Both the position numbers and the translations under genes were made by a program. A stretch of DNA of 64,000 nt. It comes from Vitiosangium sp. GDMCC 1.1324. GTDB lineage: Bacteria; Myxococcota; Myxococcia; Myxococcales; Myxococcaceae. The notes below the pieces were generated by a model that made no database searches, had not been told where the DNA came from, and saw only the letters and a list, made by a program, of their open reading frames with translations. Positions 3,101-24,185 of the stretch are shown one piece after another. Numbering within the stretch: the first letter of the stretch is position 1; each line of letters starts with the position of its first letter. The stretch lies in NCBI RefSeq assembly GCF_003044305.1, contig NZ_PZOX01000005.1, positions 259,493-323,492 on the forward strand, written 5' to 3'.

Positions 3101-6100
3101 CCTTGAAATGGGCGGTTGCAGTGCTCAACGCCTCTCGGCATCACGGCGAGCGGGACGGGCGAGGGGCACGTTTGACTGCTACCGCTGCGAGCTTGTGCTC
3201 AACGCCTCTCGGCATCACGGCGAGCGGGACTGGTGAAGGGCCTGAGTGAGATGGCCGCCAAGCTCAAGTGCTCAACGCCTCTCGGCATCACGGCGAGCGG
3301 GACGAGCTCACGCCTTCACCTCATTGCGTCGCTTGTTGAAGTGCTCAACGCCTCTCGGCATCACGGCGAGCGGGACGAGATGCAGGCCATCAGGGGACGC
3401 ATGCGCATCCTGTGCTCAACGCCTCTCGGCATCACGGCGAGCGGGACCATTACAACCGCGTCAACGATTACAAGCTCAAGTCGTGCTCAACGCCTCTCGG
3501 CATCACGGCGAGCGGGACATGACCGGTCCTCCTCAGAAGACTTCGTTCCCGTCGTGCTCAACGCCTCTCGGCATCACGGCGAGCGGGACCTGGGTGGGTT
3601 CGTCTCCAACCGGTTCAGCAAGAAGTGCTCAACGCCTCTCGGCATCACGGCGAGCGGGACCACGGGGGATGGATACGTCCTTGCGCGCCTTCACGTGCTC
3701 AACGCCTCTCGGCATCACGGCGAGCGGGACGATGCACCACGAGCAGGACGCCATTCCACTTCATGTGCTCAACGCCTCTCGGCATCACGGCGAGCGGGAC
3801 ATGCATGTGCTGGCGCGTGTCCTTTCGGGGAGCCTGTGCTCAACGCCTCTCGGCATCACGGCGAGCGGGACGCGCTCTCCCATGGTGAAGAGCCCCGTTG
3901 AGCCTCCCGTACTCAACGCCTCTCGGCATCACGGCGAGCGGGACTTCATCTCGGAGAAGGCCCTGTGAATCTCGAGGAGAGTGCTCAACGCCTCTCGGCA
4001 TCACGGCGAGCGGGACATGGGGGCGATGGCAACCAACACCGCCATAATCGTGTGCTCAACGCCTCTCGGCATCACGGCGAGCGGGACTGCCGGGCTTCAC
4101 CCTGGTGAACGACATCTGCATGTGCTCAACGCCTCTCGGCATCACGGCGAGCGGGACGGTTCAACTCCACCCTGCTCGCCCTGCCTAACCAGTGCTCAAC
4201 GCATCTCGGCATCACGGCGAGCGGGACTCTCCGCCACTCTCGGCAACAAGGATGCCCTAGAACTTGTGCTCAACGCCTCTCGGCATCACGGCGAGCGGGA
4301 CGCGAAGGCCAAGGGCTACTCCGTCATCGTCTCCACGTGCTCAACGCCTCTCGGCATCACGGCGAGCGGGACCCACATCTCTTCCAGAAGGATGGACAGG
4401 CGTACCTGTGCTCAACGCCTCTCGGCATCACGGCGAGCGGGACCAGGTCGGCGACGCCCGTGGCCTTGAGCCCGCCCCCTTTGTGCTCAACGCCTCTCGG
4501 CATCACGGCGAGCGGGACGGGCCGGGACGAGGAATCCGTCCGAGCGCATCACGAAGTGCTCAACGCCTCTCGGCATCACGGCGAGCGGGACGTACTGCTC
4601 GCGGAACACGTCCGCCTTCTCGAGGTGCTCAACGCCTCTCGGCCTCACGGCGAGCGGGACCAGTGGGCGCCTTCAAGCGGAAGGCGGGGCACGAGTGCTC
4701 AACGCCTCTCGGCATCACGGCGAGCGGGACCAGGTGGTCACCCCCCTCTCGGGCATCTCCTCCGTGTACTCAACGCCTCTCGGCATCACGGCGAGCGGGA
4801 CCCGCGAGGCCCCGGTGCTTCCGCCCGAGCCCGTGGAGTGCTCAACGCCTCTCGGCATCACGGCGAGCGGGACCCGCGAGGCCCCGGTGCTTCCGCCCGA
4901 GCCCGTGGAGTGCTCAACGCCTCTCGGCATCACGGCGAGCGGGACTTGGACCGTGTCCTTGACGCGCTTCCACTCCGGCCAGTGCTCAACGCCTCTCGGC
5001 ATCACGGCGAGCGGGACCGGCCCCACGGGCGCGCCCCTGAACCGCGTCTCGGGGTGCTCAACGCCTCTCGGCATCACGGCGAGCAGGACACGATGGACGT
5101 GCACACGTCCCAACCTGTTCAAGTGCTCAACGCCTCTCGGCATCACGGCGAGCGGGACCGAGGATCTGCGCCTGTCGCACCGCGCACTCATGGTGCTCAA
5201 CGCCTCTCGGCATCACGGCGAGCGGGACTCCGCTGGCCCGGCCTGACTCACGTCCGCTTCACGGTGCTCAACGCCTCTCGGCATCACGGCGAGCGGGACT
5301 GCGATGGCGCCAGATGGCTCGAGCTCGTCCAGGTGTGCTCAACGCCTCTCGGCATCACGGCGAGCGGGACTGGGGAAGACCGGCGCGGATGTGACGACGG
5401 CAACCGCGTGCTCAACGCCTCTCGGCATCACGGCGAGCGGGACCAACCGGCTGGACTTCTTCCTGCCGCCCAATCTGTGCTCAACGCCTCTCGGCATCAC
5501 GGCGAGCGGGACTGACGCCTGCGAACGTGATGAAGGCGCACGGGCAGTGCTCAACGCCTCTCGGCATCACGGCGAGCGGGACAACGCCAAGGTCATCGTC
5601 ACCAACGTCGAGTGCTCAACGCCTCTCGGCATCACGGCGAGCGGGACCGCCGATTCCGTTGAGGTCGGTCGCGGGTTCTTCTCGTGCTCAACGCCTCTCG
5701 GCATCACGGCGAGCGGGACGTCTCGTCGAGAATCGAGGATTCTTCCTCACCTTCGAGTGCTCAACGCCTCTCGGCATCACGGCGAGCGGGACGCCTGATT
5801 CTGATTCGCCCCGGTGCTCCGTTAAGTGCTCAACGCCTCTCGGCATCACGGCGAGCGGGACAATGAGAAGGAGCGCCACGCACAGCGCCTGCGCGACTTG
5901 TGCTCAACGCCTCTCGGCATCACGGCGAGCGGGACGTGACGTGCATAGATGGACGTCGCGACGGGATCGGTGCTCAACGCCTCTCGGCATCACGGCGAGC
6001 GGGACCACTGCTCGCGGCCAGCGACGTCCCACTGGGCGCTGTGCTCAACGCCTCTCGGCATCACGGCGAGCGGGACGCGCGACGTACATGGATGACCCCC

Positions 6101-8294
6101 TCTACAACCCCAAGTGCTCAACGCCTCTCGGCATCACAGCGAGCGGGACATCTGCCGCGCGGCCGCTGCCACCCGGTGCACGTTGTGCTCAACGCCTCTC
6201 GGCATCACGGCGAGCGGGACCCACGCTGCTGAAGAGCGCGCGCGTCGGGTACACGCTGTGCTCAACGCCTCTCGGCATCACGGCGAGCGGGACTGCCGGC
6301 CGCCACTGCCATGTCCACGAGGTACACGTGCTCAACGCCTCTCGGCATCACGGCGAGCGGGACCATGCAGACGCCGCCGGACCGCGACCCCTTCCTGTGC
6401 TCAACGCCTCTCGGCATCACGGCGAGCGGGACGACCGACAGCAAGTTGCCGTCTACGGGCGGGAAGACGTGCTCAACGCCTCTCGGCATCACGGCGAGCG
6501 GGACTTTAATGCGGCTGGGGTCTGGCCACCCAATCAGGGCTGTGCTCAACGCCTCTCGGCATCACGGCGAGCGGGACTGCCGCCGCACACAGGACCAGGG
6601 ATCTCGTGGGGGGGTGCTCAACGCCTCTCGGCATCACGGCGAGCGGGACCCACTGCGGAGAAGTACAGGCCGCAGTGCGGGATTAGTGCTCAACGCCTCT
6701 CGGCATCACGGCGAGCGGGACCATGTACAAGCGATTCTGGGAAGTCCGCAACAGGTGCTCAACGCCTCTCGGCATCACGGCGAGCGGGACGAAGTGATAA
6801 CTCTCTTGATTGCACGTTTCGATAGTGCTCAACGCCTCTCGGCATCACGGCGAGCGGGACCAAACAGGCGGGGGACGTGCACCGTTTTGCCGTCATGTGC
6901 TCAACGCCTCTCGGCATCACGGCGAGCGGGACGGCCCGGAACAAGGGCACGGCGGGCAACGACATCGAGTGCTCAACGCCTCTCGGCATCACGGCGAGCG
7001 GGACGGAGTCTCTTGAAAGAGGGCAAAAGGTTCTCGTCAGCGAGTGCTCAACGCCTCTCGGCATCACGGCGAGCGGGACCCAACACGGAGTGGACCACGC
7101 GGTACGCCCCCCCAGGTGCTCAACGCCTCTCGGCATCACGGCGAGCGGGACACTGCCTCCCCGAGGATTCGCAGCGGCTCCAGGTGGTGCTCAACGCCTC
7201 TCGGCATCACGGCGAGCGGGACGGGCACTCTTGATGGAACCTGCTGCCGAATCGCCCTCGTGCTCAACGCCTCTCGGCATCACGGCGAGCGGGACCGGCG
7301 GGACGATCAGCAACATCGTGACGGCGACATGTGCTCAACGCCTCTCGGCATCACGGCGAGCGGGACTGTATGCTGAAGGCGACAAGCCATCGCGTGATTG
7401 AGTGCTCAACGCCTCTCGGCATCACGGCGAGCGGGACAACAACGGCATCAGCATCAGCGGCAACAAGCTCGTGTGCTCAACGCCTCTCGGCATCACGGCG
7501 AGCGGGACGTGGCCATCAGCGCCAGTCAGGCGGCCAATCTGCTGTGCTCAACGCCTCTCGGCATCACGGCGAGCGGGACTGCTCAGCCATGGAGCGCCAG
7601 CCGCTCTCCACGCTGTGCTCAACGCCTCTCGGCATCACGGCGAGCGGGACTGTCCACGTTCACTGACAACGAAGCAGCCGTGTAGTGCTCAACGCCTCTC
7701 GGCATCACGGCGAGCGGGACCTGAACTTCCGGCTGCCGCCGAACATCGCCAACCAGTTGTGCTCAACGCCTCTCGGCATCACGGCGAGCGGGACTGGACC
7801 AGACTGGGTTGTTCCCCTACATGGAATAGTGCTCAACGCCTCTCGGCATCACGGCGAGCGGGACAGTGGCGGCAGATTCTGCTGATCGTCAAGGCCCGGT
7901 GCTCCACCAGCGCCCGACTGCGCGTCATCGGCGCCATCACGTGGCGGCAGATTCTGCTGATCGTCAAGGCCCGGTGCTCAACGCCTCTCGGCATCACGGC
8001 GAGCGGGACACTCGAGCATCTTCTTCCCGGAGGTATTGGCCATGTGCTCAACGCCTCTCGGCATCACGGCGAGCGGGACCCTTGACGGTCTGGACGCCGA
8101 AGATGAGCGAACGCGTGTGCTCAACGCCTCTCGGCATCACGGCGAGCGGGACTGGGGGTGTACTGCGGGCCCGAGGGGGCTTTCTTGTGCTCAACGCCTC
8201 TCGGCATCACGGCGAGCGGGACCAGCGGGTCGGGCAAGGTGCCGAGCCCCAAGACCGGGTGCTCAACGCCTCTCGGCATCACGGCGAGCGGGAC
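136..8294 (-). CRISPR. CRISPR array, about 112 copies of a 36-bp direct repeat (+ strand reading GTGCTCAACGCCTCTCGGCATCACGGCGAGCGGGAC); spacers 33-38 bp, period 72-73 bp
   Basis: Repeat is directly visible at about 72-bp spacing from 208 to 8294, with a truncated or degenerate terminal copy at 136-171. Point-mutated repeats cluster at the low-coordinate end (208-243 G>A, 640-675, 705-740, 4766-4801), marking that end as leader-distal. The lower-GC stretch 8295-8537 next to cas2 is the likely leader, so the array is probably transcribed on the minus strand. The reverse-complement repeat ends GTTGAGCAC, resembling the common ATTGAAAC-type 3-prime end. Confidence 0.97.
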
Positions 8295-8537
8295 TGCGGG
8301 CACCAATTCCCTCGTAGTTCCGCATACTTACGAGCCAGGTATTCATGCACCTCCTTGCCTCCCCGGAGACGGGCCACCCAAGCTCCCGCCCCGGCCTCCA
8401 ACCTCGCATGATCGCTGGGGAATTTCCAATCATGCACCTATTCAGTTCCCAAAGAGCTTCCAACTCCTTGATTCTACTTGCACATTCCCCACTTTCCACC
8501 CCCGCCCCACTCCGCCACGCCCCGGTGCTTGAATGTC
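8295..8537 (-). promoter_or_regulatory. Putative CRISPR leader (lower GC, pyrimidine-rich) between cas2 and the first repeat
   Basis: Non-coding stretch with GC clearly lower than its surroundings. It sits between the cas2 stop and the best-conserved end of the array. The small ORFs here are implausible. Confidence 0.45.
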
Positions 8538-8831
8538 TCATAGTACACGGAACGGTGCCGGCTCCTCCGGCCACCCCTCCTTCGGATTGATGGCCCTCAC
8601 CCGCTCCACACACCCGCCACACAGGCCAATCACCAGCAAGGTGTCCTCCTGCTCCATCACCTGGGAGAGTTCCCAGCGCAGCTTCTCCCGGTCCCGGTCG
8701 GTCAGCGAGCAGCGGAACACGGAGAGTTGCAGCCGCTCCCCATAGCCCCTCATCAGGTCATACACCTTGCGCCAGCGCTTCGGGCTGCGGATGTCGTAGG
8801 TCATCAGGTACCAGCGTCTCGGCTCGGCCAT
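8538..8831 (-). CDS. cas2: CRISPR-associated endoribonuclease Cas2
   Basis: 97 aa. The sequence [41 protein letters not shown] is typical Cas2. It lies immediately array-proximal and is separated from cas1 by 3 nt. Confidence 0.9.
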
Positions 8832-8834
8832 GGC

Positions 8835-10478
8835 TCACCTCAGTCGGAACTTCGCGAAGAGACCCGGGCTGCCGGTCCACTCCTTCTCCAGCAGCCGCAC
8901 CTCCAACTCCACCATCCGCGCGTAGCTCAGCGAGTAGCCCAGCACGTTGTGCTTCCACGTCTCGCGCTTGCGCCGCTCGTACAGCTCGATGGCCTTGGCC
9001 CTGCCCGCCTTGCTCAGCCACACGTGCTCGGGCGTCAACTCGAAGTCCGCTTCCGGGTCCCACGCCTTGCGGTTGATGGAGGCCACCAGGGGCATGTCCA
9101 CCAGGGGCACCCGGAACTGCTCCATCAGGTCCAGCCCCAGCGGCCCCGCCGAGCTGCGCGGCTGGTGGTAGAAGCCGAACGCCGGGTCCAGCCCCACCGC
9201 GATGATGGCGGCCTCCACCTCCCGGTGCACCAGGTTGTAGAGGAAGCCGAGCACCGCGTTGAAGCGGTCGCGAGGAGGCCGGCGGTTGCGCCCATCGAAG
9301 CGCATCCGCGCGTCCACGTCCTCGCCCAGCAAGGAGGGCAAGGCCCCGAAGTAGCGCGCCGCCGCGGCCCCTTCCACGCCCCGCAGCGAGTCCAGGGAGC
9401 CGGCCTCCAGGCACCTGGGCAGCAGGGCGCGGAGGTCCCTCAAGGCCACCGCCACGTCCGAGCGGGCCTCGGGCTCGCCGCGCGAGGCGCGCAGCAGGAA
9501 GCGCAGCTGCCCATCCACCTTGGCCAGCACCAGCCGGCGCGCCAGCGCGAGGCACACCTGCTCCTGCCGCAGCGCCTCGTACTGCCGCAGCCGCCGCTGG
9601 ACGTTGCCGCCACCGCCGCCCAGCCCTCCCAGGTAACGCCCTCCCGCGGTGAACCAGTGCACGCCAATGGCGTTGTGCACGCACAACCCGAGCGCCTGCG
9701 CGCTCACCTGTACCGCGCCGTGGGCGATGAGCGCGGACACGGTGCGCACCGGAACCCGCACCTCCTCGCCCTCCGGCGGCGCCACCACGAGCTGCTCCGC
9801 CTCGCGGCCCACCCGCGAGCCCGGCACCGTCACGTGCAGCACCTGCCGCGTGTCATCCTCGGGGAAGAGCCGGGGCCGGGGCTCTCCGGCGGGCTTCACC
9901 CGCTCCTCTTCCGGCAGGCACACCGGCGCCAGCGAGCAGCGGGCGCACTTGCGCTCCTCCGCCGTCACCGGGGGCCGCGCCGGGCGGGCCCGCAGCGTCC
10001 GGGCGCGCGCCACCGCCTCGCGCACCTGCTGCCGCAGCGGCTCGTCCAGGGGGAAGCGAACGGTGGTGTCCTGCTGGTGGTAGCGCACCCGGCACTCGAT
10101 GGGGCCTCCAGGGAAGCGCTCCTCGGCCAGCAGCGCGTAGGCGCCCGCCTGGAGCCGATCGCTCGGCCAGGCTTCCGGCCCCTGCTTGCCCTGCGCCGGC
10201 CGGCCCCGCTTGTGCTCGTACACCACCAGCACTCCGTCCCGGCGCCGCACGGCGTCCACCTTGCCGTGCAGCCCCAGGGCCTCGCTGGCCAGCTCCAGCT
10301 CCACCCGCTCGCCGTCCTCCGCCAGCTCCACGTGCAGCCGCCGCCCCGCGTACACCGCCGCGTCCGCCACCCGTATTTCCTCCACCTCCTCCAGGTAGAA
10401 GAGCCGCTCGCAGTACGCCAGCGCGTGCAGCGCATGCACGCGGATGGACTCCGTGCCAGGTTCCGCCCCCATGAACAT
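8835..10478 (-). CDS. cas4/cas1: Cas4-Cas1 fusion protein (N-terminal RecB-like Cas4 nuclease domain with Cys cluster, C-terminal Cas1 integrase)
   Basis: N-terminal LAYCERLFYL, VVYEHKRG (E-x-K nuclease motif) and CARCSLAPVC (Fe-S cysteines). C-terminal GFLYNLVHREVEAAIIAVGLDPAFGFYH matches the Cas1 core. 547 aa. Confidence 0.9.
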   Translation of the reverse strand: MFMGAEPGTESIRVHALHALAYCERLFYLEEVEEIRVADAAVYAGRRLHVELAEDGERVELELASEALGLHGKVDAVRRRDGVLVVYEHKRGRPAQGKQGPEAWPSDRLQAGAYALLAEERFPGGPIECRVRYHQQDTTVRFPLDEPLRQQVREAVARARTLRARPARPPVTAEERKCARCSLAPVCLPEEERVKPAGEPRPRLFPEDDTRQVLHVTVPGSRVGREAEQLVVAPPEGEEVRVPVRTVSALIAHGAVQVSAQALGLCVHNAIGVHWFTAGGRYLGGLGGGGGNVQRRLRQYEALRQEQVCLALARRLVLAKVDGQLRFLLRASRGEPEARSDVAVALRDLRALLPRCLEAGSLDSLRGVEGAAAARYFGALPSLLGEDVDARMRFDGRNRRPPRDRFNAVLGFLYNLVHREVEAAIIAVGLDPAFGFYHQPRSSAGPLGLDLMEQFRVPLVDMPLVASINRKAWDPEADFELTPEHVWLSKAGRAKAIELYERRKRETWKHNVLGYSLSYARMVELEVRLLEKEWTGSPGLFAKFRLR

Positions 10479-10545
10479 GACCTCCGCAGTGAGGCGGCGG
10501 AGGTTACTCGATTCGTCGGGTATGTCGAGCCCCCCCGGCCCGCCG

Positions 10546-11232
10546 TCAGGCCTGGCGGCGGCGGCGAGCCCCCGAGGGCCGCCCCGCCTCCGGGGAGTCC
10601 GCCAGGGGAATGCGGGGCAGTTGCTCGGGGCGCGGGGCTTCGCGCAGCGGCTTCAGCGAGCCCACCGCGTACCGCGACCCCCGCGAGCCCACGTGGTCCA
10701 CCCAGACGGGGAGCGTCACGCCCCCCTCCGGCTCGTGCACGAAGGCGCGGCACTCGGTGGGAGGCCGGCTGTCGGGGAGGAGCCGGACGTCGTTGATGAG
10801 GTGGGTGGACTCGCCGAGACACCAGCCTCCAAACCGCTCCACCGTCCACGGCTCCCGCAGGGCGCGCACCACCCGCTGCTCCAGGCGCTCGCCCCCGCCG
10901 TCCGGCTCCTCGGAGCTGTCGCACCACACCACCAGCCGCGCGTCGAGCACGAGTTGCTGGAAGTCGGGGCCCGCGTTCTCGCCCACGCCCTGCGGCGTCC
11001 GGGCGTCCTTTATCTGCCAGAGCGTGCGCAGCACCACGCTGGTGGCGGGCGCGTTCAGCAGCCCCGCGCTCACGCGGCAGCCGCGGTGGCGCTCCCGGTC
11101 CCGCTCTCCCACGAGCGACAGCAACGCGCCATAGCAGGTAGCCGGAGGGGGCAGCACCTCGCTCTCCAGGAACTCGCGCGCCCGCCCCTTGCGCCAGCAG
11201 GCCACGGGCACGCTCAGCTCGAGCGCAATCAC
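10546..11232 (-). CDS. cas5: Cas5 family RAMP protein (about 228 aa), GTG start overlapping the cas7 stop (GTGA)
   Basis: N-terminus VIALELSVPVACWRKGRAREFLESEVLPPPATCYGALLSLVGERDRE matches the Cas5/CasD pattern (L.L..P.a.W......r.T.P.PS...GLL.a..G). The upstream part of the listed 336-aa ORF overlaps cas7 and is not coding. Confidence 0.75.
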   Translation of the reverse strand: MIALELSVPVACWRKGRAREFLESEVLPPPATCYGALLSLVGERDRERHRGCRVSAGLLNAPATSVVLRTLWQIKDARTPQGVGENAGPDFQQLVLDARLVVWCDSSEEPDGGGERLEQRVVRALREPWTVERFGGWCLGESTHLINDVRLLPDSRPPTECRAFVHEPEGGVTLPVWVDHVGSRGSRYAVGSLKPLREAPRPEQLPRIPLADSPEAGRPSGARRRRQA

Positions 11233-12134
11233 TTCCCCTCCACCTCGAGCCGCTTGCACACCGCCTCGCAGGCCGCGAGGACGCCCGCATGCAGCTCCGC
11301 GCCGGACAGCAGCTCCCGCTCCTCGACGCCCAGGCCCTCCACCACCGCGCCCCCAAGCACCAGTTCCTTCGCCGGGATGTCCCGGCCGCGCACCTTGCGC
11401 AGCAGGTCCGTCAGCGACACCCCACCGCCCTCTCCCACCTGGAAGGCGTGGAGGATGCGCGGGGCGGCCTCGTGGGTGATGCGGAAGACGGCGGACTCGG
11501 GGCTGAAGTCGAAGAGGAAGCGTCCCTGGTTGCCAGCGACGGGGCCGAGGGCGCACAGGGCGCGCAGGGCGGTGGCGGCCCGCGCCGGCACCCGGAGGGC
11601 CGAGGGCGTCAGCGCCATGCCATATTGGTAGCGCGTGGCGTGCATCTCCGTGCCGTAGGGGACGGGGTTGCTTCCCTTCTTCTGGGCGGAGGGAGTGGCC
11701 CCGGGGCTGGCGGCGTTGAAGGTGACATCGCCTGGCCAGGGGGTGAGGCTCACCGCGCGCGTCACCTCCAGCACGGCTCGGCGCACCTTGGCACCGCCCT
11801 TCTCGCCCTCCTGCTTGCCCGCCTCCGCGGCCATGAAGCCCAGCAGGTCGTCGTCGATGAAGGTGTCACCCTTCGCCTTGTCTCCCCAGGCCTTGAATTG
11901 GGGGTCCTTCCACTCGTTGAGGCGCTCAGCGTCGTCGAAGGTGCGGTTGCACGGCTCCTTCTCCGCCAGGAGCCGCCGGAGCGCGAAGCGGATGGCCTCG
12001 GCGGAGACGGTGGTGTGCACCTGGCCGTTCCACACCAGCTTCTGCAGGGTGGTGATGTTGCCCTCGGTGAGGCCCCGGTTGTTGGCGGCCGTCCCGTTGG
12101 CGGTGACGAAGGCAGCGAAGACATGAAGGCTCAT
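11229..12134 (-). CDS. cas7: Cas7 family backbone protein
   Basis: 301 aa. N-terminal NNRGLTEGN...VSAEAIRFALRR resembles the Cas7/CasC signature (NRDD.G.PK...SSQS.KRA.R). Lies between cas8 and cas5. Confidence 0.75.
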   Translation of the reverse strand: MSLHVFAAFVTANGTAANNRGLTEGNITTLQKLVWNGQVHTTVSAEAIRFALRRLLAEKEPCNRTFDDAERLNEWKDPQFKAWGDKAKGDTFIDDDLLGFMAAEAGKQEGEKGGAKVRRAVLEVTRAVSLTPWPGDVTFNAASPGATPSAQKKGSNPVPYGTEMHATRYQYGMALTPSALRVPARAATALRALCALGPVAGNQGRFLFDFSPESAVFRITHEAAPRILHAFQVGEGGGVSLTDLLRKVRGRDIPAKELVLGGAVVEGLGVEERELLSGAELHAGVLAACEAVCKRLEVEGK

Positions 12135-12167
12135 GGTGGGTGTCTCCTCGGAATGGGTACGGGGACT

Positions 12168-13820
12168 TCACTGGGCCTCGGACAGCGGACCCTCTTCGTC
12201 GGCGGCCTCGGGGGCTTCGATGCCCTGGCCCTGGTAGCTGGCCAGGGCCACGAGGGCGAGATCGCGCGCCGCCCGCCAGTGCTCCTGGCGCAGCAGGGGG
12301 AGGACTTGCTTCCAGCGCTCCTGGAGCGCGCGGTTGCCGCCCGCCCGGCTCCACAGGTCCGCCAGCGCGGCGCGCACCTGCTCGAAGGTTTTCGCCCCCG
12401 AGAAGGCCAGCCGCCAGCGGTCCCGCTCCGCGTTCCAACGGTTCTTCCGGGCCACGGGGTTGCCCCTGCTCTCCTCGGCGATGGCCCCGAAGCGCTGCCG
12501 GAGCGCCACGTGCACGCTCTCGACGAGGGTCTGCTCGGCGTCCTCCAGGTGCTTGAGCATGGCGATGAGTCCTTTCCGTTCCTCTGGGAAGAGCGCGCCG
12601 AGGTTGTCCTGGGCGCGGTAGTGGTGGATGAAGCGGCGCTTGTTGTCGAGGGTGACGGCGGCGGTGGCGAAGTCCTTGAACCAGGGCTGCCCGGCCGCGA
12701 GGTTCTCGGTGATGAAGGCGCGCAGCGCGCTGCTGGCCACGAAGAAGCCCGCAGGGCCCTGACTGGCGGAAGCCTTGCCCTTCCCTCCCTTGTCCTTGGG
12801 CAGGAGGACTCGCAGGCGGTTGGGCAGCTCGCGCGCGGCCGTCTCGTAGCGGTCGAGCACCGCCTCGGGAACGGTGCTGGAGTGGAGCACCCCGCTCCGG
12901 CTCTTCTGCTGGGAGGCCCAGGGCAGCGTGCGCAGGGTGAAGGCCTCGGCGGTGTCCAGCACCCGGTGCTGGCGCCGGCGGGATTCCATACGGAGCGCGA
13001 GTTGGACGGCGAGCACCGCGTCCGAGGCACCCGCCACGGAAGCCTCTTCCAGCCGTTGAGGCGTGAGGGAGGGGCGCAGCTCGGCGAAGCGGACCAGGTC
13101 CGACGGAGCGAGCGCCACCAGCGCCCCACCTCGGGCCTGGGGGACCTTGTAGGACAGGCACCCCACGGGCGCGAAGCAGGCACAGAGCGCCTCGGCGGCC
13201 GAGTACTCCATCTTCGTCACCCGGAGCCCGATGTGCCGCTCCGCCGCGCCCGGGTAGGCCCAGCCAGCGAGCGTGACGGTGCCCCGCGTGAGCGCCTCCA
13301 CCACGTCCTTCCACGCCCCCTGGTGGACGAAGCCCGAGTAGCCCTGCACCTCGAGCCGCAGCTCCCGCTCGTCCACCGAGAACGTGAGCACCTTCGGAAC
13401 GCCCTCCTTGGTGGTGGACTTGCCGTGCTGCAGGAAGGTGAGCTTGAGGGCGTCCTGGAGCGCCGCGGCCACTTCAGGGCGAGGCGGGGCTCCAGGCGCA
13501 TAGGCCCCGGGCAGGTCGATGACGCCCGGAGACTCGCGGATGCGGAAGGACTCGCGGAAGAGCACCTCGAGCGTCTCCGCGGGCGGTTTGCCTCCCCAGG
13601 ACAGGCGGATGGACGTGGGCTCCGCGGTCGCCGAGCCAGGCCCCAGCGGTACGGGCGCGGGCCATGTGGCGCCGGGTGTCTCCCGGAGCAGGAGCGAGCG
13701 GAGGGACGAGGCCAGGCCTCCAGCACCCGCACGCAACAGCGGCGTCATCCCCGGCGCATGGAGCCGCACCACCAACTCGGGGACGTCCATGACTGCCGGG
13801 CTCTTCACGGCTTTCGCCAT
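12168..13820 (-). CDS. cas8: Cascade large subunit (Cas8-like; Cas8u/Csb3/Csx17-type candidate)
   Basis: 550-aa protein encoded between cas3 and cas7 in a translationally coupled operon. No separate small-subunit gene follows. The family is assigned by position only. Confidence 0.55.
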   Translation of the reverse strand: MAKAVKSPAVMDVPELVVRLHAPGMTPLLRAGAGGLASSLRSLLLRETPGATWPAPVPLGPGSATAEPTSIRLSWGGKPPAETLEVLFRESFRIRESPGVIDLPGAYAPGAPPRPEVAAALQDALKLTFLQHGKSTTKEGVPKVLTFSVDERELRLEVQGYSGFVHQGAWKDVVEALTRGTVTLAGWAYPGAAERHIGLRVTKMEYSAAEALCACFAPVGCLSYKVPQARGGALVALAPSDLVRFAELRPSLTPQRLEEASVAGASDAVLAVQLALRMESRRRQHRVLDTAEAFTLRTLPWASQQKSRSGVLHSSTVPEAVLDRYETAARELPNRLRVLLPKDKGGKGKASASQGPAGFFVASSALRAFITENLAAGQPWFKDFATAAVTLDNKRRFIHHYRAQDNLGALFPEERKGLIAMLKHLEDAEQTLVESVHVALRQRFGAIAEESRGNPVARKNRWNAERDRWRLAFSGAKTFEQVRAALADLWSRAGGNRALQERWKQVLPLLRQEHWRAARDLALVALASYQGQGIEAPEAADEEGPLSEAQ

Positions 13821-16057
13821 CGCGCACCTCGCAGGGGGTCATAGGTGAGCACGTCACGAGGTGCCACCGGGTAGTGCTGGACGAGCTTCCAGGACTGCCA
13901 CCCACGAAGCCATGAGGGCGGCGGGTTCATGGGCAGGGCGGCCTCCTGGGCCTTCACCCTGCCCTGCTCGACGTCCTCCACGTCCTCCTCCCTCAGCACG
14001 GTGATGCCGGGGCTGGCCTCGCGGCAGGGAGCCGGCTCCGTGCAGAAGCGTTCATCGAGCCAGGTACTGGACGTGCGCGCGGCCCCTGTCGGTCCTGGCA
14101 GGGCCTCCCAGTCGTGGACGAGGTCGCGCTGCGACAGTTCTCTCCCACCGAGCCGCTCCAGCCACCCTTCCGCCTCGCGGAGCGCTGGCTGCTCGTAGGG
14201 CTTTCCCGTGAAGGGCAGCACGACGAAAGGACGGGGAGGAAGGGGGGCCTCGGGAGAGCTGCGGCGATTGAGGCGGCCCAGACGTTGGATGAGCGCCGGA
14301 ACGGGAGCCAGGTCCGTCACCAGCAGGTCCGCGGACAGGTCGAGACTCATCTCCGCCACCTGGGTGGTGCACGCGAGCACCGGTCCGTCCTGTTTGAAGC
14401 CCTTGATGACTTCGCCGTGTCGGTGGACCCGATCCACATAGCGGAACCGGCTGTGGTAGCGCATCGCGGGCAGGCCGCGCCGCTGGGCCTCGTCCGCGAC
14501 GTCGAGACACCGGTCGACGGTGTTGCTCACCCAGAGGACCTTTCCCCCCGAGGCGAGACACGCTTCCACCTCGCTCCAAGGAGTCTCGGGGTACACGCGG
14601 CGGTAGCGGGCCAGCCCTTCCAAATCGGCGGGGCCATCCAACTCCTTCAGTTCCACGCCATGCACGCGCTGGCACAGTGCACGCAACGCCAGCAGCCGGG
14701 GTTGGGGAAGGCTGGCCGTCATCAACAGCACGGGGAGGCCCGGCAGCGCCTCGAGGAAGCGCAGGAGGCTGCCGAAGAGCTCGGCGTCGTACGCGTGGAT
14801 TTCGTCGAAGACGACGCAGGAGTCACATAGCGCAGGCCACGCATACAGCCCCTTGCGCTGGTTCTGCACCAGCCCCAGCACCGTGTCCACGGTACAGGTG
14901 ATGACGTCACAGCCCCAGGCTCGTATAGCATCGAGCCTGTCCTGGTCACGCGAGGGCTCTCCGTCTCGCTGGAGGCCAAGAATATCGAGGTCCACCGCCG
15001 CGCGCCCGTGCTCCAAACGGCCCGAGACGTCGGCTCCGTGGACGTAGTCACGGAAGCCCTCCGTGGCCGTGCCGGTGGTTGGGTAGGTGAGCCAGAGCTG
15101 GCGTCCGGGGTGTTGGCGGGCGGCCCATGCGTATGCGGCCACCGTCTTGCTACTGCCACAACCCGCGCGCGCCAGGGTGAGGGGAGCCCGGCTGTGTGCG
15201 ACGGCCTCCTGGAAGGGGCGGAGCGAGCGGCCACCGAGACGCCGCTCCACGACGGACAGCATCTCCTCCGTGGAAGCCCGCTGCGCGAGCTGGGCGCCAA
15301 TCCAAGCGCGCCTCTCGCCACTCCGGGGCAGTGCGGAGCCCGCGACGTCGGCGGCCAGGACGAGGGCCTTGGCCACCGCGAGGAGCCGCGCGTCCGGAGA
15401 GCCGGCCGGCACCTGCCGCTCGAACGCCTCCTGCCACGCCGAGAATTGCTCACGCGGATGGCTCCGCCAGGAGACCGACAGACGGTGGGCGGAGGAAAAG
15501 GCTGGAGGCGCTGGCAGGCCCAGCTTCGTCGCGATGAGTTCCAACGTACGGTGGAAGTCCTCATGCTGGGTGAGCAGCTCGATGGACGAGCCGGCGCCGG
15601 AGTCTTCCGGTGCCACCGCCGACGCCCAGAATTTGCGGTGATGGGCCGCGGCGCAGACGAGCGCGAGGCAGAGGTCCCGCTCCCCGTTCACGGCTCCGCT
15701 CAGCCAGGAGGCGAGTGGCTGGCCGGGCCAGCATAGCCAGAGAGAGAGCGCCTCATGGCGCAGGAGCTGGGGCGCCTTCCTGACGTTGCGCACCATGGCC
15801 TGGAAGTGGTCGCTGCACTTGCCCAGGTCGTGGACGGCGGCTCCCAGCAGGACGAGCCCGCGCAGCCGCTCCACGGCCCCCCCGTCCAGGCCCGCAGCCC
15901 GGAGTGAGGCAAGCCCCCTGTGCTCGAGCAACTCTTCCGCCGAGGCCAGCACCATGGCGGTATGTCCACGCAAGGTGGCGGCCCCCTCGGGACGCTCGGG
16001 CGTCTGGGTGGCCTTGGCCAGCAGGTGCTTCACCCCCTCAGCGTGCCGGACGTGCAT
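13805..16057 (-). CDS. cas3: Cas3 HD nuclease / SF2 helicase (HD domain N-terminal)
   Basis: The H...HDLGKCSDHFQ HD motif lies near the N-terminus. Helicase motifs AGCGSSKT (Walker A-like) and VVFDEIHAYD (DExH) follow. Probable start is the ATG at 16057 (MHVRHAEGVKHLLAKA). The upstream 62 codons of the ORF are GC-rich read-through. Confidence 0.9.
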   Translation of the reverse strand: MHVRHAEGVKHLLAKATQTPERPEGAATLRGHTAMVLASAEELLEHRGLASLRAAGLDGGAVERLRGLVLLGAAVHDLGKCSDHFQAMVRNVRKAPQLLRHEALSLWLCWPGQPLASWLSGAVNGERDLCLALVCAAAHHRKFWASAVAPEDSGAGSSIELLTQHEDFHRTLELIATKLGLPAPPAFSSAHRLSVSWRSHPREQFSAWQEAFERQVPAGSPDARLLAVAKALVLAADVAGSALPRSGERRAWIGAQLAQRASTEEMLSVVERRLGGRSLRPFQEAVAHSRAPLTLARAGCGSSKTVAAYAWAARQHPGRQLWLTYPTTGTATEGFRDYVHGADVSGRLEHGRAAVDLDILGLQRDGEPSRDQDRLDAIRAWGCDVITCTVDTVLGLVQNQRKGLYAWPALCDSCVVFDEIHAYDAELFGSLLRFLEALPGLPVLLMTASLPQPRLLALRALCQRVHGVELKELDGPADLEGLARYRRVYPETPWSEVEACLASGGKVLWVSNTVDRCLDVADEAQRRGLPAMRYHSRFRYVDRVHRHGEVIKGFKQDGPVLACTTQVAEMSLDLSADLLVTDLAPVPALIQRLGRLNRRSSPEAPLPPRPFVVLPFTGKPYEQPALREAEGWLERLGGRELSQRDLVHDWEALPGPTGAARTSSTWLDERFCTEPAPCREASPGITVLREEDVEDVEQGRVKAQEAALPMNPPPSWLRGWQSWKLVQHYPVAPRDVLTYDPLRGARWRKP

Positions 16058-16667
16058 GGCGTGGCTCTTCCGCGACGTCGGCGCGAGTCGGAAGGAACAG
16101 GCCACACCCCATGTGTCGCCGCCCGCCCAATCCCTTCTCCTGGAGCATGACGGACGCTTCGGGCGACAGGTCCGACAGCTCGAGGCCGAAGCCCACCACC
16201 TTCTTGCCGGCGATGGTGACGATGCGTCGGCGCCCCACCTCAAGGGTGCACGGTGCGCCTGTCAATTCCTCGATGAACCGGAGAGCCGTGGCGCGAAAGC
16301 TCTGCTCGTCCAGCGAGTGCTTGAAGGTCACAAGCCTCGCGCTGAGCCGGGGCACCTGCTCCATGGCACGGACCGTGGGCGCGCCAATCGTCACGCTCCG
16401 GCCCACCAATTCGAGGCGCCCTCCCGCCAAGCCCAGGAAGAGAGGAATCGTCTCCGCCGGGCAGCGGATGCGGAGCGAGCCATGCCCCAGGTGGAGCGAC
16501 TCGCCTGTCGAACCGTCACCCCGCAGGTTGAAGACACCCACGTGCGGGTGCTCATGCAACTCGGGAATCCGAGCCGATAGGGCGGAGAAGAGCAGGTAAC
16601 CGTGGTCGAGCGGCACGGGTCCTCCTCGTGCCGGAAAAACGAGATCAACCGTAGGCATCGTCCCCCC
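16038..16667 (-). CDS. cas6: Cas6 endoribonuclease (Cas6e-like glycine-rich loop)
   Basis: C-terminal GLGGRRHMGCGLFLP matches the Cas6e G-x-G...MGCGL crRNA-binding loop. Start ATG at 16667 (MPTVDLVFPARGG) is preceded by a G-rich RBS; an alternative start lies at 16691. The 3-prime end overlaps the cas3 start. Confidence 0.75.
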   Translation of the reverse strand, partial: GGTMPTVDLVFPARGGPVPLDHGYLLFSALSARIPELHEHPHVGVFNLRGDGSTGESLHLGHGSLRIRCPAETIPLFLGLAGGRLELVGRSVTIGAPTVRAMEQVPRLSARLVTFKHSLDEQSFRATALRFIEELTGAPCTLEVGRRRIVTIAGKKVVGFGLELSDLSPEASVMLQEKGLGGRRHMGCGLFLPTRADVAEEPRHARPAR

Positions 16668-17015
16668 TACTCCAGCAGTTACGAGGCCCATGCTACCCGA
16701 ACGTCTCGCGATGTCGGCGAGAAAAAACGCCATTCCATGGCCCGTGCGCAAGAGGCGTTGAACAACCCGTCACGGGAGCGGCCCACACATGGCGAGGAGA
16801 AACGCACCCGGTGCAGAGAAACCTTCCACAGGCGGAGAAACAGGGCCCGGGCCCGCTCTCACCCGGCCGCGCCGCTTGCCAAGCAAGCAGACGCTGGACG
16901 ACTTGGGGAGGCTGGCGCGGCATGGGTGCTACGGTGCGCCGCGCAACGCCGGGCGTGCCTTCCGGGGGAACACCGCCACAGGCTGATTGAGACTCGAGCC
17001 CACTGAGACGCAACC

Positions 17016-18353
17016 GTGAAGCTGTCCCTCCCGCCCCTCCTGCTGCTCCTCACCCTCCTCAACACCTCCGCCCTGGCGGCCCCGGGCCATGGCGCACCTC
17101 CGGAAAGCCCCTCCCTCTCCGCCCCCTTCGCCTCCGTGGCGGAGCGCCACGGTGGGCGTGAGCTCGCCATGGCCCCCGTGGAACAGTTCGCTGTGGACGG
17201 ACACACGCTCTCTCGCCAGCTCGCGAAACTCACGGGTGTAGCCATCTCGCCCCTGCTGGGTATGGGCCTGTTGGGTGCCAGCGCGTACTTCCAGGCGCCA
17301 GCGGAGACGCGCGCGGGCCTGCCCTGGCACCTCCAGCCGTGGGCATGGGGCCCCGCACTGCTGCTGGTGCTATGCGTGGCGTTGAAGGACTCCCTCCTTG
17401 CCCTCCCCGGCCTGGGCGTCCTCAAGAAGCCGCTGGATGCGGCTGAGGTGGTAGAGAACAAGGTGAGCGGCGCGGTGGCCATGCCGCTCGTCACGAAGGG
17501 CACCGCCGCGGCGCTCACGCTGCCCCTGGCGGGCGCTGTGGCGGGGGTGGCGCAGCTCATCCTCCCCACGGCTCATGCGGCAGGCCCAGCGGGTGCGGCA
17601 CTCGGCGGGATTGTGACGGCGGCCTTCTACGGGGTTGCCCTGGTGCTGGCGGCGGGGGCCTTCGCACTGGTGTGGCTGACAAGCCACGCCGTCAACGTGC
17701 TCGTCCTCCTCAGCCCCTTAGCCTTGGTGGGGACAGCCCTCAAGCTGGCCCGGCTCGTTCTCCTCGGCTTCCCCGTGCTGTGCGCTGCCATCAGCCCCAC
17801 GCTGGGGCTGCTCGTGTGTGCGGCGTACCTCGCCCTGGCGTGGTGGCTCGCGGGCTGGGCCTTCCGGCTGCTGGTGTTCGGGGGGGTGTTCTCCGTGGAC
17901 TTCCTGCTGCTGCGCTGGCGCCGACAAAAGGTAGACGCTCCCACCGTACGCGCCTTCGCGGCGGAGTTGGAGGGCGTGCCGGCGCGCACCTACGGGACTC
18001 TCACGCGCACGGAGGCCGGGGCGGTGGACTTCACCTTCCGCCCCTGGCTTGTGCTGCCCGCGCGCACGGTGCGGGTGGCCGGGAGTGTAGTGGGCCTGGA
18101 GGTAGAGAAGGGGCTCATCAGCCCCATGGTGGTTCTGGTGGAGCCCTCCCGCCAGGTGCGCGCCCTCATCCGGCTACCTCCGCGGTACCGCAAGCTCGAG
18201 TTCGCCGTCGCTGGGGTCTTCGGGGCACTCCCCTTACATGAGGCCGCCCTGGTGCGAGGCCTCGTCGGTGGTTGGCAGTGGCTCAAGTCGCAGTTCAGCC
18301 GCACGCGGCGACGCGGACGCGAGGTGCGGCTCTCGCAGAGCGCGGCGTCATGA
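17016..18353 (+). CDS. Integral membrane protein with signal peptide (hypothetical)
   Basis: N-terminal MKLSLPPLLLLLTLLNTSALAAP signal, then multiple hydrophobic Ala/Leu-rich helices. High-GC codon usage; divergent from the cas operon. Confidence 0.6.
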   Translation: MKLSLPPLLLLLTLLNTSALAAPGHGAPPESPSLSAPFASVAERHGGRELAMAPVEQFAVDGHTLSRQLAKLTGVAISPLLGMGLLGASAYFQAPAETRAGLPWHLQPWAWGPALLLVLCVALKDSLLALPGLGVLKKPLDAAEVVENKVSGAVAMPLVTKGTAAALTLPLAGAVAGVAQLILPTAHAAGPAGAALGGIVTAAFYGVALVLAAGAFALVWLTSHAVNVLVLLSPLALVGTALKLARLVLLGFPVLCAAISPTLGLLVCAAYLALAWWLAGWAFRLLVFGGVFSVDFLLLRWRRQKVDAPTVRAFAAELEGVPARTYGTLTRTEAGAVDFTFRPWLVLPARTVRVAGSVVGLEVEKGLISPMVVLVEPSRQVRALIRLPPRYRKLEFAVAGVFGALPLHEAALVRGLVGGWQWLKSQFSRTRRRGREVRLSQSAAS

Positions 18354-19345: not shown

Positions 19346-20440
19346 TCATGCCGTGCCCACATTGAGCACCTCTGTCAGGCCCCGAAGCGCCTCGAGCAGA
19401 GTCCGCCTCTCCTCCGGAGAGAGCTTTGTGATCTTCGTCTTGTCGACGACAAGCTGCTCCTCGTCGTTGTGATAGGCTGAGCCCCGAAGGAGTCTCTGAA
19501 CAGGGCTCTCCGGGGTTCGTGCCTTCACCCCCTCCACCTCCATCCTCTGCTTCTTCTCACCCCCCGCACGAATCCGCCGCACAAGTTCCTTGACCTCGCG
19601 GAAGGTCATTCCTTCCGCAACTACCCTCTCAAAGTGCTGGCGGAAAACCTTGTCCGCCGCCCTGGGCTTCTGCCGCTGGAGAAACTTGTGCAGCTTCACC
19701 AACTCCAGCGCAGCGAACGTGTCCGTCATGCTCTTGGTGACAAGGACAGGCTTGCTGACCTTCCTCTTGCTTCCATCCTCCTGAATCTCCTCCTCCTCGC
19801 GCATTACAGGGTTGTTTTCGGCATCGAGTTTGGGGACTCGCACTCCCTCGGTGAAAGCCCGCTTCACCACGTCCGGGGCCCGTGCCAGGGTGAGGCACCG
19901 CTCAATGTGGTCCTCACTCTCGCCGGTGCTCCGAACAATATCGGCCTTGCTCTCGCCATAGAGTTCAATCAACTCCAGGTACTTCTCTCCCTCCTCCAAC
20001 GCATCGAGATTCTCGCGGTTGTTCTCGGCCAACCCGTCATAGATGCGCTGCTTGACGCTCCGCTCGTCTCCCTCCTCCAGCGTGCCAGGGATCGTGCGGA
20101 AGCGCGCGTCTTCCCGGGCAAGCACCTTGAACACCTCAAGGCGGCGTCCTCCCCACCGAAGAAAGAAACGCTCCGGGTTATCTGGGTTGCGTCGCAAGCC
20201 GACCGCCTGGAGCAACCCATTCGCCTTGATGTTGTCCCGGAGCCGGATGAACGACGGCGCATCCGTGCGAATCGCCCGGCGCGGCTGCTCCGGGCTTGGA
20301 TCAATCAATTCCACCGGAACCCGTAGAATGGCATTGGCGAGGACCTCGACCCCGCCCGGCAGCGGAGCGGCCGCCGTCTTCTGTCCAATGAGCTCCCGAA
20401 TATTGCCACCACTACCACTCCGTGATTCAGCCCTCGACAC
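19346..20440 (-). CDS. parB: ParB/Srx-domain partition protein
   Basis: IDPSPEQPRR...LRDNIKANGLLQAVGLRR...GGRRLEV matches the ParB N-terminal box (GERRxRA). The gene overlaps parA by 14 nt. Confidence 0.8.
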   Translation of the reverse strand: MSRAESRSGSGGNIRELIGQKTAAAPLPGGVEVLANAILRVPVELIDPSPEQPRRAIRTDAPSFIRLRDNIKANGLLQAVGLRRNPDNPERFFLRWGGRRLEVFKVLAREDARFRTIPGTLEEGDERSVKQRIYDGLAENNRENLDALEEGEKYLELIELYGESKADIVRSTGESEDHIERCLTLARAPDVVKRAFTEGVRVPKLDAENNPVMREEEEIQEDGSKRKVSKPVLVTKSMTDTFAALELVKLHKFLQRQKPRAADKVFRQHFERVVAEGMTFREVKELVRRIRAGGEKKQRMEVEGVKARTPESPVQRLLRGSAYHNDEEQLVVDKTKITKLSPEERRTLLEALRGLTEVLNVGTA

Positions 20441-21221
20441 GACGAATTACCTCCTCGGTAAAGCTGCTGTACTCCCTGGCGCCCGGATCCGATGGCGCCG
20501 CCACGATGATAGGTTTGCCGTACCCATGGGCGTCCGCAATGGACTGTCGCCGGGACACCCGGGTGGCGAAGACAGCTTCCTCCCCGAACAACTTTCCCAG
20601 CAGGCCCACCGTCTCATGTGGTGTCTTCGCCCGCGAGTTGAAGAAGGTTGGAAGCACTCCCAGCAGCCGCAGCTCCGGCTGTGTGAGGCGCTGAAGACCC
20701 CGGATGCTGTCATGAAAATCCATGGTCATCGGAACATTCCCAATGTCGGCCTGGACGGGCGCGATGATGTTGGGGGCAGCCAGTAGCGCCATGATGAGGA
20801 GCCGGTTCAGGGTGGGCTGTGTGTCGATGATGACGTAGTCGTACTCCATCTCGACGCGCGCCAGGGACTCCGCGAGGAGCCGCACTCCGCCATCTGCTGC
20901 GCTCAAGTCCTTCTTGGACAAGTCATCAGCGAGGTAGGCCAGCCTCTTGGTGGCGGGTAGGAGGTCCAGGCCAGCTAGAAGATGCTTACGCTGGGGCGCG
21001 AAGGGTTTCCCCAGGAGCAGATCCGTAGTGCTGTAGATTTGCTCCCTCTCCTCGCGCACGGCCACAGCAAGCCCAAAGAAGATGGACGCGCCAGCGGAGG
21101 GGTCCATATCCAGCAGCAGGACCTTCCGGCCCCGCTGCGCGAGGCCCGCGGCCAGATTGATGGAGGTGGTTGATTTGGCAACGCCGCCCTTGTTGTTGGC
21201 GACACAGATTCTATTAGCCAT
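20427..21221 (-). CDS. parA: ParA/MinD-family partition ATPase
   Basis: MANRICVANNKGGVAKSTTSINLAAGLA carries the deviant Walker A. Internal ATG at 21221; the listed 421-aa ORF has a spurious N-terminal extension. Confidence 0.9.
   Translation of the reverse strand: MANRICVANNKGGVAKSTTSINLAAGLAQRGRKVLLLDMDPSAGASIFFGLAVAVREEREQIYSTTDLLLGKPFAPQRKHLLAGLDLLPATKRLAYLADDLSKKDLSAADGGVRLLAESLARVEMEYDYVIIDTQPTLNRLLIMALLAAPNIIAPVQADIGNVPMTMDFHDSIRGLQRLTQPELRLLGVLPTFFNSRAKTPHETVGLLGKLFGEEAVFATRVSRRQSIADAHGYGKPIIVAAPSDPGAREYSSFTEEVIRRVEG

Positions 21222-22754: not shown

Positions 22755-24185
<1,431 letters not shown>

Follow-up and report, generated by a model that had tools for sequence, protein, structure and literature searches.

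The dev operon of Myxococcus xanthus DK1622 (CRISPR2-3-Cas; cas6a-cas3-devT-devR-devS-cas4/1-cas2) is the archetype of the CRISPR-Cas systems that NCBIfam curates as 'type I-MYXAN'. The same family profiles match every protein of a cas operon (8538-16667) on the minus strand of a 64,000-nt stretch of Vitiosangium sp. GDMCC 1.1324 (contig NZ_PZOX01000005.1, positions 259,493 to 323,492; hereafter the window). With a probability of about 0.93, this operon, together with its leader and CRISPR array, forms a type I-B CRISPR-Cas immune locus (MYXAN variant) that is complete and apparently functional. The Myxococcus loci among the relatives described below (L002-L006 and L010) share with the window the gene order, the fused cas4/1, the leader right after cas2, and a near-identical repeat. 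The window differs from the M. xanthus dev locus in genus (its nearest relatives, at ~91%, are Vitiosangium and Archangium) and in its much larger array. Neither devI nor a developmental promoter is in evidence in the window, and the upstream region is unconserved even in the closest relative.

Two I-B complexes of known structure are related to the locus. The 'Myxan' Cascade (CRISPR-associated complex for antiviral defence) of Synechocystis sp. PCC 6714 (PDB 8H67; PMC11096372) is built of the same subunits, Cas8b, Cas7b, Cas5b, Cas6b, and a Cas11b made from an internal ribosome binding site (RBS), Cas11 being a predicted product in the window. The large subunits are nevertheless very divergent: Cas8 of the window and chain 8h67_L show 14% identity in the structural alignment, with a template modelling (TM) score of ~0.5, and no sequence-level match by phmmer or by profile. 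The best match of Cas8, in sequence and in structure, is found in the I-B CRISPR-associated transposon (CAST) of the Peltigera membranacea cyanobiont (PmcCAST; PDB 8FCJ), the Cas8 of which was deposited as 'Type I-MYXAN Cas8a1/Cmx1'. That system is transposon-borne, without Cas3 and adaptation genes, and recruits TniQ/TnsC, whereas the window has Cas3 and Cas4/1-Cas2. The type I-G (formerly I-U) system of Geobacter sulfurreducens has in common with the window the Cas4/Cas1 fusion followed by cas2 and the lack of a separate cas11 gene, and the I-G adaptation module is the next-best profile match after the MYXAN model. Its Cas8u2/Csx17, Cas5-Cas6 fusion (Csb1), Csb2-type Cas7, and Cas3 with a C-terminal HD domain are absent from the window.

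Subtype assignment and gene content

Profile searches used NCBIfam with its curated cut-offs, PADLOC-DB, Pfam, and Rfam; the copy of Pfam was one without a Cas8 or Cas5 model, and PF27372 (DevT_N) and PF27281 (DevT_C) were seen as precomputed annotations only. The starts of the cas genes were refined by profile coverage and by comparison with how the genes are called in L038, a relative of 91% identity. The operon consists of seven consecutive open reading frames (ORFs) in the order cas6-cas3-cas8-cas7-cas5-cas4/cas1-cas2, each with strong Cas family matches covering the profiles over their full length (NCBIfam, Pfam, PADLOC), which bears out the gene content and order proposed in an earlier note made from the letters of the window. 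All the subtype-specific 'type I-MYXAN' profiles of NCBIfam (Cas6, the N- and C-terminal parts of Cas8, Cas5, Cas7, and Cas1) score above their curated cut-offs, and PADLOC labels the seven proteins Cas3b, Cas8b, Cas7b, Cas5b, Cas1b, Cas2b, and Cas6b. The search therefore returns one family set, type I-MYXAN/I-B, and the locus, which the same note had taken to fit no canonical subtype and to be possibly undescribed, is of an already known kind, an ordinary member of a curated and widespread subtype.

Cas6 matches TIGR02807 (cas6_cmx6) with 212 bits (cut-off 98.9) over all profile positions 1-197, the match beginning at Met32 of the maximal ORF; it also matches Pfam PF09559 and the PADLOC models Cas6 'subtype MYXAN' and Cas6b. 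By TIGR02807 the protein is of the Cmx6 type. In Cas3, the HD profile covers residues 29-242 and the helicase residues 297-600 of 750, which places the HD domain at the N-terminus, as had been read from the sequence. TIGR01596 (cas3_HD) and TIGR01587 (cas3_core) both exceed their cut-offs, and the PADLOC model Cas3b (PDLC02080) reaches 696 bits with coverage of 2-709 of 709 positions. Cas8 is recognized by TIGR03485 (N-terminal, cas_csx13_N; 293 bits, cut-off 80.9), TIGR03486 (C-terminal, cas_csx13_C; 144.9 bits, cut-off 47.4), and PADLOC Cas8b 'CAS-I-B effector_LS' (266.6 and 136.9 bits). For Cas7 the matches are TIGR02585 (Cst2/DevR; 149 bits, cut-off 72.8), TIGR01875 (148 bits, cut-off 67.3), and PADLOC Cas7b, and for Cas5 they are TIGR02586 (cas5_cmx5_devS; 209 bits, cut-off 111.5, the profile starting from residue 110 of the maximal ORF) and PADLOC Cas5b 'CAS-I-B' (213.8 bits). 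Cas2 scores 49.2 bits with TIGR01573 (cut-off 24.5) and 132.9 bits with PADLOC Cas2b over the whole profile.

The Cas4/Cas1 protein is matched by TIGR03983 (cas1_MYXAN; 548.9 bits, cut-off 358) and TIGR00372 (cas4; 71.5 bits, cut-off 65), and its residues 16-547 match PADLOC Cas1b (PDLC02067) with 752.6 bits and coverage of 2-533 of 533 positions. As this 533-position model spans both domains, the Cas4/Cas1 fusion is itself modelled as an I-B protein. A further reason for the atypical look of the locus is its adaptation module, which the Cas1 models of I-G and I-C fit better than the HMARI-type Cas1 of I-B does (124.5 bits); Cas4/1 fusions are on record in I-B, I-U, and V-B systems (PMC6547450). 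The separate Cas6 and Cas5 genes, the single Cas4/Cas1 ORF, and the lack of a cas11 gene, all described before, stand; no separate cas11 was found among the ORFs of the locus (8538-16667).

The coordinates are given in Table 1. The cas3 gene shares 20 nt with cas6 and 16 nt with cas8, and L038 is identical in the overlaps and has a gene call of the same 750 aa; the GTG start of cas5 and the stop of cas7 overlap as GTGA. The GC content at third codon positions (GC3) of the seven ORFs is 0.83-0.94 in a genome of ~69% GC, and the GC content by codon position is like that of genuine genes. The catalytic motifs are intact: in Cas3 the HD motif (VHDLGK) and helicase motifs I (GSSKT), II (DEIH), and VI (QRLGRLNR); in the Cas4 domain the N-terminal Cys23 and the C-terminal CxxCx5C cluster (four Cys) with EHK; and in the Cas1 domain VEGAAA, FYH, and LDLME.

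Table 1. Coordinates of the CRISPR-Cas locus in the window.
Feature	Position	Strand	Description
cas6 (Cas6/Cmx6)	16658-16038	minus	206 aa, from ATG 16658; crRNA-processing endoribonuclease
cas3	16057-13805	minus	750 aa; N-terminal HD nuclease fused to superfamily 2 (SF2) helicase
cas8 (Cas8b = Cas8a1/Cmx1/Csx13; DevT homologue)	13820-12168	minus	550 aa; Cascade large subunit
SD-like sequence GGAAAGGA	12577-12570	minus	~9 nt upstream of the Met421 ATG
predicted internal cas11	12560-12168	minus	130 aa, in frame in cas8; ATG 12560-12558 = Cas8 Met421
cas7 (Cas7b; DevR/Cst2 homologue)	12134-11229	minus	301 aa; Cascade backbone
cas5 (Cas5/Cmx5; DevS homologue)	11232-10546	minus	228 aa; GTG start
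cas4/cas1 fusion	10478-8835	minus	single ORF, 547 aa; Cas4 nuclease ~10-193, Cas1 203-547
cas2	8831-8538	minus	97 aa
CRISPR leader	8295-8537	minus	243 nt, cas2 stop to first repeat
CRISPR array	136-8294	minus	114 recognisable 36-nt repeats; Tandem Repeats Finder (TRF) and regex scan

Other subtypes were considered and rejected. Type I-C is characterized by Cas8c/Csd1 and by Cas5d as the CRISPR RNA (crRNA) endonuclease, without Cas6; in the window Csd1 has no match, Cas6 is present, and cas1_DVULG reaches 243 bits against a cut-off of 385. The hallmarks of type I-E are Cse1/Cse2/Cas6e and the lack of Cas4. Here Cse1/Cse2 have no match, Cas4 is present, Cas6 is of the Cmx6 type, and cas1_ECOLI scores 43 bits against 215.6. 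Type I-A has a separate cas11 (csa5) and usually split cas3'/cas3'' genes; the locus has no csa5 gene, its Cas3 is one HD-helicase polypeptide, and the name 'Cas8a1' is historical. In the I-B CASTs, Cas3 and the adaptation genes have been lost, and the system is linked to tnsABC/tniQ. Such an affiliation was considered in view of the best PDB match and was rejected, given the presence of Cas3 and Cas4/1-Cas2 and the lack of Tn7-like genes among the flanking ORFs scanned. The profiles of Csx17, Csb, Cse, Csd1, GSU0053, and GSU0054 give no match to Cas8, Cas7, or Cas5 at E<=0.01 in NCBIfam (nor do the I-G effector models in PADLOC).

The same system carries four labels: I-A/Cas8a1 (PMC6061681), I-C/Cas8c (PMC8616872), I-B/Cas8b (PMC11096372, PADLOC), and I-MYXAN (NCBI). 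The Myxan large subunit (Cmx8) has been renamed Cas8b (PMC11096372), and the 'I-C' label given to dev in PMC8616872 is unsupported by the profile results. Owing to this naming, reasoning from gene content alone makes the locus look unclassifiable. The locus is of little weight for discovery, and its practical value lies in illustrating a nomenclature trap.

Conservation of the locus in other genomes

The search with Cas8 gave 202 homologues at E<=1e-5, many of which are named "type I-MYXAN CRISPR-associated Cas8a1/Cmx1", and the family occurs in hundreds of genomes. Looking up the exact Cas8 sequence of the window in public assemblies gave no record. The nearest Cas8 cluster, at 91% identity, comprises Vitiosangium sp. 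GDMCC 1.1324 and an Archangium metagenome-assembled genome. Cas8 is 61% identical to DevT of M. xanthus DK1622 (UniProt P38586) over the full length, including the internal Met discussed below, and the locus is thus a system of the dev-operon type.

An alignment-driven scan with one genome per species yielded 37 related loci from Myxococcota, Binatia, Nitrospirales, Acidobacteriota, Planctomycetota, Latescibacterota, and others, the gene order being determined by tblastn with the window proteins. The identical order cas6-cas3-cas8-cas7-cas5-cas4-cas1-cas2 is found in 30 of the 37, Myxococcus included, and five more lie on truncated contigs and are collinear as far as the contig extends. The exceptions are L015, with cas6 after cas5, and L022, without nearby cas3 and cas4. 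In 31 of 31 related loci, cas4 and cas1 share a reading frame that no stop interrupts. One established subtype for all the proteins, combined with this collinearity, leaves no place for the undescribed variant that the earlier note had envisaged. The homology between the window and L038 (90.7% over 16726-11391) ends at 16726, ~70 nt upstream of cas6 (boundary at L038 1-1487), and the flanks further upstream show no relationship, which means that in close relatives the CRISPR-Cas locus sits in different genomic neighbourhoods.

The gap between cas5 and cas4/1 is 67 nt in the window, and several related loci contain 0.4-2.7 kb of extra DNA at this place: L001 (9669-12357), L021, L023, L024, L026, L030, L031, L034, L035, and L037. 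The insert of L024 encodes, on the minus strand, a 185-aa protein with tandem 'DLQRLKADFQELRTATQA' repeats, and that of L001 contains two minus-strand ORFs of 273 and 397 aa.

Predicted Cas11 within cas8

The prediction that Cas11 is made from an internal in-frame start at Met421 of cas8, which the earlier note had raised as a possibility, is strongly supported. Met421 is invariant in 41 of 41 homologues (alignment members down to 47% identity), and the codon aligned to it is ATG in 38 of 38 loci, the window included. In all 38 a purine-rich Shine-Dalgarno (SD) sequence stands ~9 nt before this ATG, the version in Binatia and Nitrospirales being GAGGAGGA. The energy of the duplex with the anti-SD at the Met421 site is <=-4.1 kcal/mol in each of the 38 loci (mean -7.3), a level reached in the same genes by 29% of all codon positions and by 25% of the other in-frame ATGs. 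The SD codons of the window, GAA, AAA, and GGA, account for 14%, 8%, and 13% of the Glu, Lys, and Gly codons in the operon (joint probability 0.0014), and at the invariant Gly417, 35 of 38 loci use GGA or GGG, codons that make up 50% of all Gly codons in these genes.

The structural comparison points in the same direction. In the phmmer alignment, Met421 pairs with Met397 of PmcCAST Cas8 (8fcj_I), which is residue 1 of the 138-aa Cas11 chain 8fcj_J. Single-sequence phmmer of Cas8 against the PDB gave weak matches only (E 9e-11), and for this reason a firm match needed profile and fold searches. The Cas8 family profile finds 8fcj_I with E 8.2e-37 and 8fcj_J with E 8.9e-9, residue 1 of the latter chain lying at the corresponding profile position. 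The AlphaFold2 model of the 550-aa Cas8 (predicted local distance difference test 85.3, predicted TM score 0.84) has an all-helical C-terminal bundle at residues 412-528. With this model, Foldseek retrieves 8fcj_I (E 4.9e-21, TM 0.73/0.81) and the Synechocystis I-B Cas8b 8h67_L (E 3.8e-7), and the comparison with the Cas11 chain 8fcj_J gives a target TM of 0.73 with a root-mean-square deviation of 2.5 Å. In the Myxan-type I-B system of Synechocystis, an internal RBS in cas8b gives rise to Cas11b, and the Cascade has the composition Cas8b1-Cas7b7-Cas5b1-Cas6b1-Cas11b3 (PMC11096372). Internal translation of Cas11 is described as widespread in I-B, I-C, and I-D systems, with experiments demonstrating it for I-B (bioRxiv 10.1101/2020.04.18.045682). 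An internal Cas11 is thus already established for the family.

Strict conservation of both the internal ATG and the SD implies a Cas11 encoded in devT-type genes as well, and it is likely that all the dev/MYXAN-type cas8 genes, devT of M. xanthus included, are two-product genes with a second start at the Met421-equivalent codon. If this is true, the classical devT mutants of fruiting-body studies removed or kept a second, unrecognised protein, and the proposed 'DevTRS' autoregulatory complex could depend on Cas11. This may bear on the interpretation of dev mutants, a minor point for myxobacteria researchers. A literature search returned no work linking DevT with Cas11, the two terms co-occurring only in a general review.

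CRISPR array and leader

The locus is completed by the leader and the array (Table 1), which the earlier note had not mentioned. As transcribed, the repeat is GTCCCGCTCGCCGTGATGCCGAGAGGCGTTGAGCAC, and the spacers are mostly 33-39 nt long. The consensus is matched exactly by 100 of the 114 repeats. Of the 14 variants, 8 lie below 2300, and the outermost repeat, at 136, is the most degenerate (4 mismatches). The accumulation of degenerate repeats at the far end indicates that the leader-proximal end adjoins cas2 and that the array is read on the minus strand with the cas genes. The Rfam family RF01336 (CRISPR-DR23) gives 113 matches above the gathering score in the array. L005 and L006 have exactly the same repeat as the window. 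In 27 related loci, the array shares the strand of cas2 and lies ~250-350 nt downstream of it; these loci keep the 3' half of the repeat, GATGCC-N4-GGCGTTGAGCAC, with a variable 5' half. The leader aligns with those of 7 myxobacterial loci with a mean column identity of 81%. It contains the sole sigma-70-like site of the region 8200-17200, TGGAAA-16-TAGAAT at 8498-8471, which is a consensus match only.

Some irregularities are observed in the array. At 7865-7973 the 33-nt spacer GTGGCGGCAGATTCTGCTGATCGTCAAGGCCCG is present twice, around a 42-nt stretch, GTGCTCCACCAGCGCCCGACTGCGCGTCATCGGCGCCATCAC, that retains only the first 6 nt and a CATCAC block of the repeat; this unit is probably a recombination or deletion scar. 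The adjacent spacers 4802-4837 and 4874-4909 are identical over 36 nt, and the spacers 2801-2836 and 6578-6613, which are 3.8 kb apart, are identical over 34 nt. These duplicates suggest repeated acquisition of one protospacer or internal duplication. The spacers show short chance matches only to the rest of the window and to the 37 related loci. The best self-match is that of spacer 5862-5899 to 45983-46020, within the gene of a giant tetratricopeptide repeat (TPR) protein of 4103 aa (gltI-like), with 21 contiguous nt and 23 of 38 overall (blastn-short E 3.6e-6 for the small local database); as a target it was judged a chance or non-functional match and rejected.

Proposed mechanism

The course of immunity proposed here draws on homology to solved and tested I-B systems, and expression, Cas11 translation, the cleavage site, stoichiometry, and the protospacer adjacent motif (PAM) are all inferred. 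The pre-crRNA would be transcribed from the leader on the minus strand, and Cas6 would cut the repeat after, or at the base of, the conserved GCC-N4-GGC hairpin, leaving the 8-nt 5' handle TTGAGCAC. Cascade would then form from the crRNA, Cas5, a filament of Cas7, Cas6, Cas8b, and the 130-aa Cas11 in several copies, the latter translated from the internal in-frame ATG (Met421) of cas8. The PAM would be read by Cas8b and Cas5, and once it is recognized and an R-loop has formed, the HD-helicase Cas3 would be recruited to degrade the target DNA. New PAM-compatible spacers would be acquired by Cas4/Cas1-Cas2 and inserted at the leader end.

Alternative explanations

Several points weigh against an I-B immune locus with an internally encoded Cas11. 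No match was obtained when the whole array was compared by megablast with 50,697 phage records; consequently no target or PAM is derivable and the immune activity is a prediction from the genes. In M. xanthus the orthologue is known above all for autoregulation in development, and immunity need not be the only role of the locus; the inconsistent subtype label across the literature also counts here. Translation of Cas11 at Met421 rests on conservation and homology, for this as for any myxobacterial locus, and a constraint on the amino acids E-R/K-K/G-G-L could explain part of the conservation upstream of Met421. The codon bias in the SD-like motif speaks against such a constraint being the full explanation. 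Before 2020 it was assumed for I-B that the C-terminal domain of Cas8 substitutes for the small subunit. The corresponding explanation here, in which no separate Cas11 exists and the C-terminal helical domain of full-length Cas8 alone takes its place, is unlikely. It would agree with E-R/K-x-G-L being conserved before Met421 as amino acids, which could mimic an SD. It does not agree with an ATG in every one of the 38 loci, with an SD at a fixed distance composed of operon-rare codons, or with the preference for GGA/GGG at Gly417, and in the homologous PmcCAST complex a Cas11 chain starts exactly at the aligned Met. Furthermore, internal translation has been shown both in the Myxan-type system of Synechocystis (PMC11096372) and in Haloferax I-B (PMC11899642).

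It is quite improbable that the locus is chiefly a developmental regulator, in the manner of the DevTRS autoregulation of sporulation timing described for M. xanthus (PMC6061681, PMC8616872). Cas8, Cas7, and Cas5 are indeed homologues of DevT, DevR, and DevS, and the host is a myxobacterium with an adventurous gliding motility (Agl-Glt) cluster, but the near-perfect repeats, the diverse spacers, the conserved leader, and the intact adaptation and Cas3 genes speak for immunity, and the same system is present in non-developing phyla, e.g. Binatia and Nitrospirales. The link to development is apparently recent and specific to M. xanthus through devI (PMC6061681), and since the homology with the 91%-identical L038 stops so close to cas6, a conserved upstream region of the dev kind does not exist. 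A decaying or inactive remnant, to which the missing spacer matches, the one corrupted repeat unit, and the few duplicated spacers could be attributed, is very improbable in the face of seven full-length ORFs with full profile coverage and intact catalytic motifs, an array in which most repeats follow the consensus exactly, and GC3 values typical of expressed host genes. Finally, it is hardly credible that the operon is a type I variant so far undescribed, with the I-G/I-U lineage of Csb1/Csb2/Csb3 (Cas8u1) as its nearest kin, the relationship that had been favoured from the gene content. The hallmarks of I-G are a Cas8u2/Csx17 or Csb3 large subunit, a Csb2-type Cas7, the Cas5-Cas6 fusion Csb1, and Cas3g with a C-terminal HD domain. 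The Cas4/Cas1 fusion is I-G-like (NF049935 cas4g_cas1g 414.8 bits, PADLOC Cas1g 377 bits), and Cas3 partly matches cas3_GSU0051 (115.7 bits). Both NF049935 and cas3_GSU0051 remain under their cut-offs (560 and 400, respectively) and are beaten by cas1_MYXAN, Cas1b, and Cas3b, while the effector profiles Csx17, GSU0053, and GSU0054 do not match Cas8, Cas7, or Cas5 at E<=0.01. Unlike I-G, the window also has cas6 and cas5 as genes of their own and an HD domain at the N-terminus of Cas3, and the architecture is that of a curated family. The type I-B, MYXAN-variant immune locus is thus the preferred assignment.

Genomic surroundings

Outside the CRISPR-Cas locus, the window is ordinary chromosome of a myxobacterium, probably one of the Archangiaceae. 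Divergent from cas6, an ORF of 445 aa lies on the plus strand at 17016-18353; its GC3 of 0.86 is coding-like, and the product is hydrophobic and membrane-protein-like, with no Pfam match. Next come two minus-strand genes, for a ParB-helix-turn-helix-like protein (19346-20440) and a ParA-type ATPase (20427-21692), and a plus-strand gene for a tyrosine integrase (22755-24179), which at its 3' end overlaps a tRNA-Arg(CCG) gene (24111-24185, minus). The region 19346-24185, in which the GC content falls to 0.62-0.65, looks like an integrated element with an arrangement reminiscent of the Mx8-type integrases. A direct repeat of the tRNA-Arg 3' end, as attL/attR of an island possibly carrying the CRISPR locus, was not found in the window.

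Beyond the integrase region, ffh, a group II intron, and the gliding cluster follow. The intron (29687-31420, minus) has a reverse transcriptase ORF at 29687-31075 (RVT_1, E 6e-42) and an Rfam group-II-D1D4-3 match at 31252-31420 (85.8 bits), and it lies within a stretch of lower GC content (0.59-0.65, 26-34 kb). The Agl-Glt cluster occupies 33445-58406 on the minus strand, in the order gltE-cglF-gltG-cglE-...-gltI-like-gltJ, and confirms that the host is a myxobacterium. Its members include GltJ (930 bits), GltG (1053 bits), GltE (776 bits), CglE, and CglF, together with a 1236-aa TPR protein and the 4103-aa TPR protein, which stands in the gltI/agmK position.

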